Position numbers and translations under genes: made by a program | DNA from: Fusobacteriota bacterium | GTDB lineage: Bacteria; Fusobacteriota; Fusobacteriia; JAPLKR01 | Reading direction: 5' to 3' | Length of the DNA stretch: 13,934 bases | Assembly: GCA_026387965.1 (NCBI GenBank) | Contig: JAPLKR010000130.1 | Coordinates: 1 to 13,934, forward strand | Notes under the pieces: model-generated | Databases searched by the model: none | Told to the model about the DNA's origin: nothing | Seen by the model: only the letters and a program-made list of their open reading frames with translations | Shown: positions 10,346 through 12,978 of the stretch, piece after piece | Numbering within the stretch: the first letter of the stretch is position 1 | How the letters are laid out: each line of letters starts with the position of its first letter

Positions 10346-10364
10346 GTTTCAATCGGCTCTAATA

Positions 10365-10395
10365 CCCCTCTACTTGCGGAGGGGTATTAGAATTT
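10365..10395. repeat. Perfect 12-bp inverted repeat / stable hairpin with no T-tract
   Basis: The sequence is CTAATACCCCTC-tacttgc-GAGGGGTATTAG. It is located ~20 nt past the truncated nudix end. Confidence 0.5.
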
Positions 10396-10480
10396 TAGGG
10401 TTGCCATATTTATTAAACCCTCACCAGTACAAAAATTCAACTTCATATCAAATAACTTTATACACAAAAACGAACATTAT

Positions 10481-10522
10481 AACTTCAATTGACAAATTTA
10501 AGTGCAACTTAATTTGTCAATT
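10481..10522. repeat. Near-perfect palindrome, copy 1 (arms 22/17 nt around GCA)
   Basis: ACTTCAATTGACAAATTTAAGT gca ACTTAATTTGTCAATTG. It is a slightly degenerate relative of copy 2 at 12515-12559. Confidence 0.6.
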
Positions 10523-10587
10523 GGGGATTCTAAAAATTATATTATGCTGTAAAATCTAAAAAAGTTAGTTAATTTGTTCAGATTCAA

Positions 10588-11076
10588 TTATCCGACGAAA
10601 AAATTTACGTTGTCTTGTTTTTGAGTATCATTAATTCCAACAGATATGTATGGTTCATTAGGAAGTTCTACTGCCACGCTATACCAATCATCATCAGAGT
10701 TAGGACCAAACCTGGTGACAACTACCTGGTCAGCAGGCCAACCATCAGAATTCACCTTAGGTGAATCGGTTATTGAAAAATAACCGATCTTTGTACCGGT
10801 AGTGCTTTCAACTGCAACAGTAATATAATCATCCCCAAACCACCCTAAACCGTAGCTCTCAGTATATTTATATGATGTGGAATGAGCAGCGATTGTTATC
10901 CATGTATTATTTTCTGGGATATCATCGGCATTCCAGTTGGAGTCATCAGTTTCTTCATATTGTATCGGATATGACTGGTTATTGACAACTTGGACATCAA
11001 AACCTTGACCTGCAAAAGCAGTAGCGCTTAAAATTGTTCCAGCAGTGATAATTGTTAACAGTAATATTTTTTTCAT
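10588..11076 (-). CDS. Small secreted beta-rich protein of unknown function, paralog A (162 aa)
   Basis: There is a signal peptide (MKKILLLTIITAGTILSATAFA|GQG) and a GGAGG RBS. The mature region shows an internal repeated motif (WITIAAHS / YITVAVES / YSVAVELP). It is ~85% identical to paralog B, with conserved termini and a divergent core. Confidence 0.8.
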   Translation of the reverse strand: MKKILLLTIITAGTILSATAFAGQGFDVQVVNNQSYPIQYEETDDSNWNADDIPENNTWITIAAHSTSYKYTESYGLGWFGDDYITVAVESTTGTKIGYFSITDSPKVNSDGWPADQVVVTRFGPNSDDDWYSVAVELPNEPYISVGINDTQKQDNVNFFVG

Positions 11077-11112
11077 TAGTTAATTACCTCCAAAATTAGT
11101 TTATTTTTATGT

Positions 11113-11125
11113 AATATTACACCAG
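11113..11125 (-). promoter_or_regulatory. Extended -10 promoter of paralog A
   Basis: The minus strand reads TGGTGTAATATT (TGn + TGTAAT), ~30 nt upstream of the RBS. The region upstream of it, ATGCACTCATGT, is conserved with paralog B. Confidence 0.4.
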
Positions 11126-11149
11126 ACATGAGTGCATGTTCCTTATTGA

Positions 11150-11559
11150 ATTGTGTAGAAAATACATCACCACAATAAATTCCAATCATAAGCTTTGTCA
11201 TGGACTCACGCATGACTAAAGAATTGACTATAAAGACTTTAAATCGGGCATTAGGGCATTTGAAAGAGACTAAAAATTTATTCCACCACTCTGATAGAGG
11301 CGTTCAATATTGTTCAAACGATTATCAGGAATTGTTGAAAAAAAATGAAATCACTTGCAGCATGAGCGGAAAAGGTAATTGCTATGATAATGCAATCATT
11401 GAATCCTTTTATAGCAGTTTAAAAAAAGAACTCGTTTTTCATGAAAAATATAGAACTAGACAGCAAGCCATCGATAGTATTACCAAGTATATTCTACATT
11501 TTTATAATTGTAATAGGATTTATGGGTCTATTAATGATTGTACGCCTATTCAATTTTAA
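11150..11559 (+). mobile_element. IS3-family transposase (OrfB) remnant, 5'-truncated C-terminal fragment (~125 aa)
   Basis: ...SRMTKELTIKTLNRAL...HHSDRGVQYCS...SMSGKGNCYDNAIIESFYSSLKKE...YILHFYNCNRIYGSINDCTPIQF matches the C-terminal half of the IS3-family integrase core. OrfA, the first catalytic Asp region and a recognisable left IR are absent. Upstream in frame a stop is reached at 11176. Confidence 0.8.
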
Positions 11560-11594
11560 AAATTATATTATGCTGCAAAATCTAAAAAAGTTAG

Positions 11595-12107
11595 TTAATT
11601 TGTTTGGGTTGAATTTCCGACGGAAATATTTACGTTGTCTTGTTTTTGAGTATCATTAATATTAAAAAATATGGATGGTTCATTAGGAATTTCTACTGCT
11701 AAGCTATTCCACTTATCACCAGAATTAGGACCAAACCTGTTGACAACTACCTGTTGACCAGGCCAATCACTAGGATCCATATTAGTGAGATCGGTTATTG
11801 CAAAACAACCGATCACTGTACCGGTAGTGCTTTCAACTATAACAGTAATATAATTTTCCCCACTCGTCCCGTCCAAAAATTGAAAACCTTTGCTTTCTGT
11901 ATATTTATATGATGTGGAATGAGGAGCGATTGTTATCCATGTATTTGTGATATCGTAGTTATTCCAGTTGAGCTCATCAATTTCTTTATATTGTATCGGA
12001 TATGACTGGTTATTGATAACTTGGACATCGAAACCTTGACCTGCAAAAGCAGTAGCGCTTAAAATTGTTCCAGCAGTGATAATTGTTAACAGTAATATTT
12101 TTTTCAT
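11595..12107 (-). CDS. Small secreted beta-rich protein of unknown function, paralog B (170 aa)
   Basis: Its signal peptide is identical to that of paralog A and it has a GGAGG RBS. The C-terminus is extended by 6 aa relative to A (A carries TAA where B has AAT). Confidence 0.8.
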   Translation of the reverse strand: MKKILLLTIITAGTILSATAFAGQGFDVQVINNQSYPIQYKEIDELNWNNYDITNTWITIAPHSTSYKYTESKGFQFLDGTSGENYITVIVESTTGTVIGCFAITDLTNMDPSDWPGQQVVVNRFGPNSGDKWNSLAVEIPNEPSIFFNINDTQKQDNVNISVGNSTQTN

Positions 12108-12143
12108 TAGTGAATTACCTCCAAAATTAGTTTATAGTTACAT

Positions 12144-12156
12144 AAGATTGTACCAC
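12144..12156 (-). promoter_or_regulatory. Extended -10 promoter of paralog B
   Basis: The minus strand reads TGGTACAATC (TGn + TACAAT), preceded by the conserved ATGCACTCATGTG. Confidence 0.4.
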
Positions 12157-12254
12157 ACATGAGTGCATATGTATAATTAAATTACGTAAATCTAATGACA
12201 AAACGAGCTCTAAATTAGATTTTTTTTTTTTAATTATGTGCCGCTAGAAAACAG

Positions 12255-12366
12255 TTTTCCACATTGCGAAGTGTATAAGTTGAAATCTTGATAATAGCCA
12301 TATTTTTTAAAATAAATCGAGTTTTTAAAAACTTTTCCACATGATTATTTGGAAAATTGTGGAAAT
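12255..12366. promoter_or_regulatory. Cluster of three DnaA-box-like 9-mers flanking an A/T-rich stretch
   Basis: TTTTCCACA at 12255-12263 and at 12333-12341 both fit TTWTNCACA. On the opposite strand ATTTCCACA (complement of 12358-12366) has one mismatch. A very AT-rich segment (12285-12330) lies between the first two. Confidence 0.3.
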
Positions 12367-12514
12367 CTAGAAGTGAGTAAAATCAACGCTTTGGGGCGCG
12401 TCGCGTGAAAGTGCATTGAAGCATGATGAGACATTAGATGTTGAAAAGTTGAAAACTATAATGCGTCTTGTCAAGTACTTTTTTGTTAAAATATCAAAAT
12501 TAATTTAACGGTTT

Positions 12515-12559
12515 ATAATAGCAAACTTCAATTATCAAATTAAGTGCAACTTAATTTGA
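12515..12559. repeat. 45-nt perfect palindrome, copy 2 (21-nt arms around GCA)
   Basis: ACTTCAATTATCAAATTAAGT gca ACTTAATTTGATAATTGAAGT. It lies ~50 nt beyond the stop of the IS30-family remnant, where that element's terminal IR would be expected. Confidence 0.6.
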
Positions 12560-12609
12560 TAATTGAAGTCCGCCCAGAAAACTTCATGGGGCGCTTTGTA
12601 ATTAAGTAC

Positions 12610-12819
12610 TTATATTGGTCTGTTAATCAATTGAGTAGCTACGTCTCTAATTTCTTTATCTGAAATAGTATTGAAGTCCGTTCCTTTTGGGAAATACTGC
12701 CTTAATAAGCCATTTGTATTCTCGTTAGTTCCTCTTTCCCATGGATGGTGAGGAAGTGCGAAATAATAGTCGATTTCTAGAATCTTAAAATTTGTCATAC
12801 CGGCTGCTAATGCTGGTAT
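12610..12819 (-). mobile_element. IS30-family transposase remnant, C-terminal fragment
   Basis: (ALAAG)MTNFKILEIDYYFALPHHPWERGTNENTNGLLRQYFPKGTDFNTISDKEIRDVATQLINRPI* matches the conserved C-terminal region of IS30-family transposases (YF..P...WERGTNENTNGL.RQYFPK...LNNRP). It is truncated upstream by a stop at 12820-12822, and the usual last ~20 aa are missing. Confidence 0.8.
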
Positions 12820-12978
12820 CTATGAACTTCAAGAATAGAATCCGGGACTATGACCAAAATGACAAGCGCTCAATTCAGTCTCCATATTTAAGAAAACTGC
12901 TACAAAAGCAAAAAAAGACTTTAAAAAGTTATGAAAATATGATAAATTTTTAGTATAGAAATCTTAAGGAGGCATACA

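Follow-up and report, generated by a model that had tools for sequence, protein, structure and literature searches.

What occupies the DNA between a broken nudix gene and pepA in an uncultured member of the Fusobacteriota, and how did it come to be there? The question concerns positions 10346-12978 of a 13,934-nt stretch (hereafter the window) that makes up the whole of contig JAPLKR010000130.1, which belongs to a metagenome-assembled genome (MAG) labelled ‘Fusobacteria bacterium’ at NCBI. A first-pass annotation, made from the letters of the sequence, had read this region as an accessory island scarred by insertion sequences (ISs), with two secreted-protein genes as its cargo and a palindrome near each edge. 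We think it likely that it is instead a chromosomal stretch in which a lineage-specific gene for a small Sec-exported protein with a predicted aegerolysin fold was tandemly duplicated, and in which repeated IS3- and IS30-family insertions and deletions surrounded it with four defunct IS fragments and a disabled nudix gene.

Almost all that the first-pass annotation described is present. Two tandem paralogous genes, here called parA and parB, lie on the minus strand at 10588-11076 and 11595-12107, and their products are NTX05_08730 and NTX05_08735. ParA is a Sec-type secreted protein of 162 amino acids (aa). ParB, with 170 aa, is 71-74% identical to it and has the same signal peptide, with AFA|GQG at its end. 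The loss of 1 nt immediately ahead of the ancestral stop codon lengthens ParB by eight residues. Between the paralogs is a 5′-truncated IS3 transposase gene, and to the right of parB is the C-terminal remnant of an IS30 transposase. A solo IS30 end and an IS3 tail, both near the nudix gene, bring the decayed fragments to four. The paralogs are the only intact coding content of this scarred region, and their reading frames have been kept despite heavy divergence.

The duplicated units run from 10527 to about 11145 and from 11553 to about 12176. They are direct, head-to-tail repeats of about 1.03 kb with a novel joint, and are 84-92% identical. On the upstream side of the genes, the 5′ untranslated region (UTR) and promoter region of parA (11077-11145, minus strand) align with those of parB (12108-12176, minus strand, the right end of the duplicated unit), with 55 of 69 nt identical. 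On the downstream side, the 3′ flanks at 10527-10589 and 11553-11615 are 90% identical. This common flank had been noticed before and was thought to begin exactly at the IS3 stop codon, but it starts 4 nt before that TAA. The sequence between the units consists only of IS3 orfB, and no IS3 sequence occurs to the right of the second unit.

At the joint, located at about 11145-11178, the upstream region of par meets the inner part of IS3 orfB. Given that the joint lies inside orfB, the IS3 sequence would have been a passenger of the duplication and not its recombination substrate. Read from the alignment, such a joint is the signature of a simple tandem duplication of a segment made up of the IS3 3′ part and par, not of unequal crossing-over between IS copies. 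The earlier proposal of IS-mediated tandem amplification disagrees with a joint in the IS3 interior and with the lack of IS3 sequence after the second copy. A related proposal, that an IS3 right end was part of the duplicated unit, holds in that IS3-derived 3′ sequence was duplicated, but not in the terminus that it assumed.

The larger IS3-family fragment (11176-11598, plus strand) begins at about codon 245 of orfB and matches the NCBIfam IS3 model and Pfam rve, rve_2 and rve_3. Its open reading frame (ORF) at 11200-11559 matches NF033516 with an E-value of 1.3e-40 over profile positions 251-368 of 369. The score of 139.9 is under the full-length cut-off of 160 because only one third of the protein is present. 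Neither an orfA nor a programmed -1 frameshift was found, and there is nothing IS3-like upstream of about 11176. The nearest homologues are a protein, P0125, with 61% aa identity, and an IS3 transposase of a Bacillus thuringiensis plasmid with 55%. P0125 is in a decayed element, in which inverted repeats are not recognisable.

The end of the orfB frame indicates how far the IS3 sequence extends. The frame meets a TAA at 11557-11559, where homologues have glutamate, and is then open to a second TAA at 11596-11598. A shorter remnant of the IS3 3′ terminus is located 3′ of parA (10527-10572, plus strand) and, by comparison with homologue tails, comprises the final codon, then the TAA that both copies have, and the open tail KLYYAVKSKKVS*. 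Copy B ends in IQF*KLYYAAKSKKVS* and copy A in F*KLYYAVKSKKVS*, and both fit F*KLYYA(A/V)KSKKVS*. All 28 of the homologues examined, as well as the B. thuringiensis relative, continue for 6-12 or more residues past a conserved ..(F/Y)E, and their tails often have an aromatic residue at the third position (KSFYEKQQSKAA, KMYLQRLKSTA, QKYYQELVAA). The internal TAA is most simply a GAA-to-TAA change older than the duplication, and the IS3-derived sequence probably runs to 11598 in one copy and to 10572 in the other. The terminus proposed earlier, a right inverted repeat (IRR) ending ...ATGCTGCA, corresponds to the ‘CA’ at 11575-11576 (TA in copy A). Terminal inverted repeats of the IS3 family end in 5′-TG...CA-3′, but this dinucleotide lies inside the probable transposase tail and is no more than a candidate for the IS3 terminus.

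To judge from their translation and alignment, both palindromes represent the right end of an IS30-family element: its IRR of about 26 bp is made up of the outer arm and the loop, and the inner arm lies in the last transposase codons. Copy 2, at 12525-12569, had been placed about 10 nt too far left (12515-12559). Its 21-nt arms pair without a mismatch across a loop of 3 nt (-19.6 kcal/mol, z -11.6). Copy 1, at 10481-10523 on the minus strand, is a solo right-end remnant with the same sequence except that it has an additional T and that its inner arm is cut short (-12.8 kcal/mol, z -6.9); its outer end, at 10481, faces the nudix gene. Copy 2 belongs to a 5′-truncated element of 264 bp (12523-12786, minus strand) that includes the last ~84 transposase codons. 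Its ORF at 12610-12798 (minus strand) matches NCBIfam IS30 model NF033563 with an E-value of 2.3e-23 and 83.3 bits (cut-off 80) at profile positions 210-265 of 267, a match limited to the C-terminal 56 residues. This remnant shares 98% identity with IS30 transposases, likewise partial, in the same MAG.

Two of these partial transposases, P0005 and P0245, are found at the ends of two other MAG contigs, and have C-termini reading ..NNRPRK(I/V)LNYKTPQE(I/V)FWAD(F/L)NCQIKLHLI. Homology of the 264-bp element to P0245 starts at KILEIDYYF. In the window, the frame has an in-frame TAA at 12610-12612, beyond which the minus strand reads ..INRPI*VLNYKAPHEVFWADFNYQIKLHLI*, straight through the palindrome to the native TGA stop at 12535-12537. 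With this read-through, the transposase gene crosses the inner arm, continues over the loop and stops within the outer arm. Copy 1, with its one additional base, decodes as N*QIKLHL.

Among annotated elements, the nearest is an IS30-family copy carried by plasmid pZRK30-3 of Fusobacteria bacterium ZRK30 (CP102408), with 58% aa identity. Its inverted repeats, TTGTATAATTAAATGCAACA and TGTTGCATTTAATTTGACAA, represent the left inverted repeat (IRL) and the IRR. Both align with the palindrome loop and outer arm, giving 16 invariant columns in five sequences. This alignment identifies the outer arm as the ~26-bp IRR and the inner arm as its inverted copy, adjacent to it on the internal side. No such palindrome occurs in the ZRK30 relative; it is thus a feature of the IS30 lineage of the window. 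A metagenome scan for the palindrome core revealed one further independent copy, on a contig from the JGI metagenomes (L023/L024) that also aligns with copy 1, and a scan of viral contigs gave no matches. In all three copies the flanks diverge directly beyond the outer arm. At three positions of the stem, the copies differ in both of the paired bases (A-T/G-C, T-A/A-T and T-A/C-G), so the symmetry has been maintained. The right-end palindrome may be a self-contained unit of an IRL-like sequence and the IRR, kept symmetric by compensatory changes and having a function of its own.

The association of the palindromes with IS termini, suspected from the start, was thus correct, with the qualification that the terminus is the right one of IS30 and overlaps coding sequence. 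Roles as operators, terminators or IS30 target hot spots were considered and rejected, given that the palindromes encode the transposase C-terminus and align with IS30 inverted repeats. We found no description of a terminal IRR palindrome in IS30, in a literature search that was limited. In the metagenomic copy (L023 11581-12110, L024 51-600), the last ~110 bp of IS30 are joined to an IS21-like left end with repeated TGTTGC motifs and the first ~85 istA codons. This frame-like fusion is a scar of one IS within another.

Both IS30 remnants are in direct and not inverted orientation, each with its IRR on the left and its body on the right, and their left ends are absent from the window. Because both ends have the same orientation, they do not frame a composite transposon, which consists of two IS copies with usable outer ends around a cargo. 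A complete IS30 element has both ends, a full transposase and a target duplication of 2-3 bp, but the remnants here measure 43 bp and 264 bp.

The nudix gene is indeed cut off at 10345, as had been stated. Only its N-terminal 75 codons remain (10118-10345, plus strand; Pfam NUDIX E-value 3e-16, profile positions 2-67 of 134), and the frame ends at a TAA at 10343-10345. A complete Nudix fold has an intact Nudix box of the form GX5EX7REUXEEXGU; here the last glycine of the box is changed to glutamate, and an in-frame TGA (10262-10264) falls within it. The missing C-terminal half is absent from every frame on both sides of the region. We rejected recoding or selenocysteine as an explanation of the TGA, an isolated instance in a gene that has been truncated as well. 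The IS30 remnant has a second apparent Cys-to-TGA change.

Next to this pseudogene, a 13-bp GC-cored hairpin followed by ATTTTA (10358-10391, plus strand; -12.1 kcal/mol, z -5.5) begins 13 nt past the nudix-frame stop. A strong hairpin had been reported here, but at 10365-10395 and at the truncation point itself. It is probably a leftover intrinsic terminator with no link to any IS end, and was missed by a terminator scan because its T-run is short. The nearest IS end is 138 nt from the nudix break, and the terminator-like hairpin lies within that gap.

These observations can be arranged into a proposed history. At first, a single par gene would have had an IS3-family element on its downstream side, at most about 15 nt away and in convergent orientation; IS3-derived sequence is observed to adjoin both par 3′ ends. 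The orfB of this element would already have had the TAA in place of the glutamate codon: the TAA common to both copies is observed, and the mutation would precede them. A segment of ~1.03 kb, from orfB codon ~245 to ~70-100 nt upstream of par, would then have been tandemly duplicated. The homology boundaries of this step are observed, and we infer illegitimate recombination as its mechanism. The par copies would subsequently have diverged, chiefly in the mature protein and with their frames kept. IS30-family elements would have inserted, and later deletions would have left two right ends. One, of 43 bp, is fused to the left IS3 copy, and the IS3 part of the first unit would have been cut by deletion to the last 46 nt that now abut this IS30 end. 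The other, of 264 bp and upstream of parB, is fused to the pepA upstream region (12787-12978, plus strand), which includes the ribosome-binding site and precedes the pepA ATG at 12979. IS30 transposes by a copy-out-paste-in route and is a known source of deletions and rearrangements (PMC9333248). The nudix gene would have lost its 3′ half and gained a stop codon in an event attributable to no particular IS. The IS scars have no function, and the par genes are the working content of the region.

The par genes differ from each other unevenly along their length. In the first 40 codons there are 2 differences in 120 coding nt, and the nonsynonymous (dN) and synonymous (dS) divergences are 0.011 and 0.038. 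From codon 41 to the end, dN is 0.215 and dS is 0.097, a ratio of 2.2 (one-sided Fisher p 0.036). Internal indels of 6 nt and 12 nt keep the frame. The in-frame indels and the divergence fit continued selection for intact but changing Par proteins. At the nucleotide level, 10915-11157 and 11946-12188, which hold the 5′ UTR, the signal peptide and the first ~17 mature codons, are almost identical, and the remainder is ~20% diverged. The near-identical part may be the result of gene conversion or of strong constraint.

The family is sparsely populated. A word-indexed search of 5.8 billion sequences returned just four par-family proteins, all from this MAG; the two that are not in the window form a second tandem pair elsewhere, with no IS sequence between them. 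A profile search of 1.84 billion representatives extended the family to 18 small secreted proteins with the motif AGxG(F/W)YVTIxN...(C)WYxxD...YTE. A first AlphaFold2 model, built from four sequences, was too poor for use, with a predicted local distance difference test (pLDDT) score of 54. With 18 sequences, the model reached a pLDDT of 84.7 and a predicted template modelling (pTM) score of 0.76, and the Par proteins are predicted to adopt the beta-sandwich fold of aegerolysins. Aegerolysins recognise particular membrane lipids and often act together with a pore-forming protein that they recruit (PMC9505663). By analogy, the Par proteins are most likely membrane-lipid-binding proteins.

The island reading holds that the region was acquired horizontally and inserted into the nudix gene, that the palindromes mark its edges, and that its cargo was amplified by recombination between IS3 copies before the ISs decayed. 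The truncated nudix gene would fit, as would IS remnants and palindromes toward both sides and IS3-derived sequence after both paralogs. We nevertheless regard this reading as improbable. The GC content of the region (0.30-0.36) is close to that of its flanks (0.33-0.36), and the window contains no deviant composition, tRNA or integrase ORF; the nudix 3′ half is not on the far side. The only flanking repeats are the two IS30 ends, whose shared orientation, with the left one 138 nt from the nudix break, does not suit island-edge marks. The joint runs from the IS3 interior into unique sequence, with no IS3 to the right of parB, and the second tandem par-family pair elsewhere in the genome shows that the family is not confined to this locus. 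The known relatives are distant. In a scan for PepA with one genome per species, the closest proteins, from Psychrilyobacter and Cetobacterium, are 44-49% identical. The genomes concerned have no nudix gene and unrelated genes upstream of pepA (sulfite reductase/CbiX; LPG synthase), with no synteny. An old insertion is conceivable but unsupported. In a BLASTN search of the whole region against plasmids, matches were confined to the conserved IS3 and IS30 coding cores.

Two narrower alternatives concern the assembly and the smaller palindrome, and we consider both very unlikely, the former slightly more so. The tandem arrangement and the IS joints could be mis-joins at repeats in a short-read metagenome assembly. 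The window is, after all, a MAG contig, the IS30 element is multi-copy in the genome, and L019, a Logan contig from SRR20698640, breaks within the par repeat at 10632. However, L019 is 100% identical to 8955-10632 of the window, a segment that takes in the nudix break and its hairpin, the solo IS30 end, the IS3 tail and the 3′ part of parA, and includes the nudix TGA, which is therefore not an error of the window contig. A second contig from the same run, L001, is 100% identical to 5394-8959. The repeat units, at 84-92% identity, are resolvable by short reads, and the decay mutations at the joints, stop codons both common to the copies and peculiar to one, are what genuine ancient fragments would be expected to show. 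The other alternative regards the palindrome at 10481-10523 not as a deletion remnant but as a miniature mobile element, an IS30 IRR with an inverted IRL-like copy, moved by the IS30 transposase. Its layout, an IRL-like sequence (outer to inner) followed by the IRR (inner to outer), is that of an IS without its interior; copy 1 is almost exactly the palindrome alone, and its symmetry is preserved through compensatory changes. Yet two of the three independent copies extend into transposase sequence, the viral scan found none, and copy 1 has no target-site duplication and lacks the outermost 4 nt of its inner arm. The sequence to its left is not IS3, meaning that a deletion is needed in any case.

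Several points weigh against the history of duplication and IS decay that we prefer, or against parts of it. The order of events is one that we infer rather than observe. The independent assembly backs 8955-10632, and the tandem part (10633-12978) comes from one short-read MAG contig. Exact-protein look-ups with ParA, ParB, P0003, the IS3 ORF, the IS30 ORF and P0005 returned no contigs; the only ones available were the short Logan contigs L001, L002, L019 and L020. An intact copy of either IS was not retrieved, and neither the IS30 left end, target duplications nor the true IS3 terminus was recovered. That dN/dS exceeds 1 is a borderline result (p 0.036-0.066) from the comparison of one gene pair. 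As regards the fold, none of the 18 par-family members matches PF06355 at E-values up to 10, none has a hit to another Pfam family, an hhalign comparison with pleurotolysin A gave a probability of 0.9%, and a profile search of the PDB with the family gave no match. No gene for a partner of the MACPF or Toxin_10 type is present in the 13.9-kb window.

The IS content of the locus is ordinary, and its minor novelties are the secreted aegerolysin-fold family and the maintained IS30 terminal palindrome. IS remnants, pseudogenes and local tandem duplications are routine in decaying or IS-rich genomes, and as an island the locus is of little consequence. Eye-catching paired palindromes may, as here, be no more than the coding 3′ end of an insertion sequence, which calls for caution in scanning by sequence alone. 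A more ambitious reading, which we consider somewhat less likely than not, is that ParA, ParB and their ~16 distant relatives are an undescribed Sec-exported family with an aegerolysin-type lipid-binding fold that underwent tandem expansion and positive selection in this lineage, and that the IS30 palindrome may have a role of its own. If this is true, positive selection on the Par family would point to a surface- or membrane-targeting role, such as that of a toxin, adhesin or competition factor. Should the Par proteins prove to bind lipids, the known range of a toxin and lipid-sensor fold would widen to the Fusobacteriota and to a Sec-secreted class, in a family that is recognisable as aegerolysin-like only through structure prediction.

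We now note additional properties of the locus. Between the parB promoter and the IS30 end is an ORF-free stretch of 345 bp. Within it, a 110-bp segment (12256-12365) holds three of the window’s four exact TTTCCACA motifs, two in forward orientation as TTTTCCACA and one in reverse; the motif is similar to a DnaA box. Also upstream of parB is a GC-rich, terminator-like hairpin, CGACGCGCCCCAAAGCGTTG, followed by ATTTTA (12384-12403, minus strand). Its possible roles are termination of a gene that has since been lost and insulation of parB. In a search of the region with Rfam, nothing reached gathering thresholds, and the palindromes gave only chance matches to miRNA hairpins (E-values 0.15-0.87).

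Directly upstream of the dead nudix gene, positions 9066-9971 (plus strand) encode a 301-aa DUF2608 protein (PF11019, E-value 1.7e-38) with an N-terminal signal peptide, a further secreted protein of unknown function near the par genes. An 88-aa ORF at 7386-7652 (plus strand), between genes for a SpoU methylase and pepT, encodes no more than the C-terminal portion of a TauE/SafE-type permease (PF01925). This second truncated gene of the contig fits general gene decay. A strain variant, L002 (SRR21524759), has 79-84% identity and is frameshifted at this fragment. Beyond the part identical to the window, L001 has 109 nt of unrelated GC-rich sequence (3567-3675), probably a chimeric join in the Logan assembly.

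The components of the locus each have counterparts among known systems. The resemblance of the longer fragment to the IS3 family lies in the rve/DDE C-terminal region of orfB. Compared with full elements of this family, the window keeps only the last ~125 codons, without orfA, the frameshift site, the left end or a recognisable IRR, and with a premature TAA. The IRR of the B. thuringiensis IS3 element is located 5-42 nt past the stop codon and is dissimilar, whereas in the window there are ~15 nt between the open-frame stop and the parA stop. As direct repeats of ~1.03 kb with a novel joint, the two par units resemble an ordinary segmental duplication with a passenger IS fragment. In a duplication by unequal crossover between flanking ISs, by contrast, the joint would not fall within the IS as it does here, and a third IS copy, absent here, would be present.

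The Par proteins have no detected relationship at the sequence level to the aegerolysins of PF06355, such as ostreolysin A6/pleurotolysin A, Pseudomonas aeruginosa RahU and B. thuringiensis Cry34Ab1. To our knowledge, characterised aegerolysins in general have no signal peptide. ParA and ParB, by contrast, have a classical Sec signal peptide, and no pore-forming partner gene is nearby. The sole statement on signal peptides that we found in a review of aegerolysins is that the fungal aegerolysin Ter lacks one (PMC9505663).

With the IS30 family, exemplified by E. coli IS30 and the ZRK30 element, the window copies share the match to the transposase C-terminus, a terminus of ~26 bp and a transposase gene that enters the right inverted repeat. 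They differ from the family in being 5′-truncated fragments, and from the ZRK30 element in that their lineage has an inverted copy of the IRR directly inside the IRR, forming a perfect palindrome of 45 bp.

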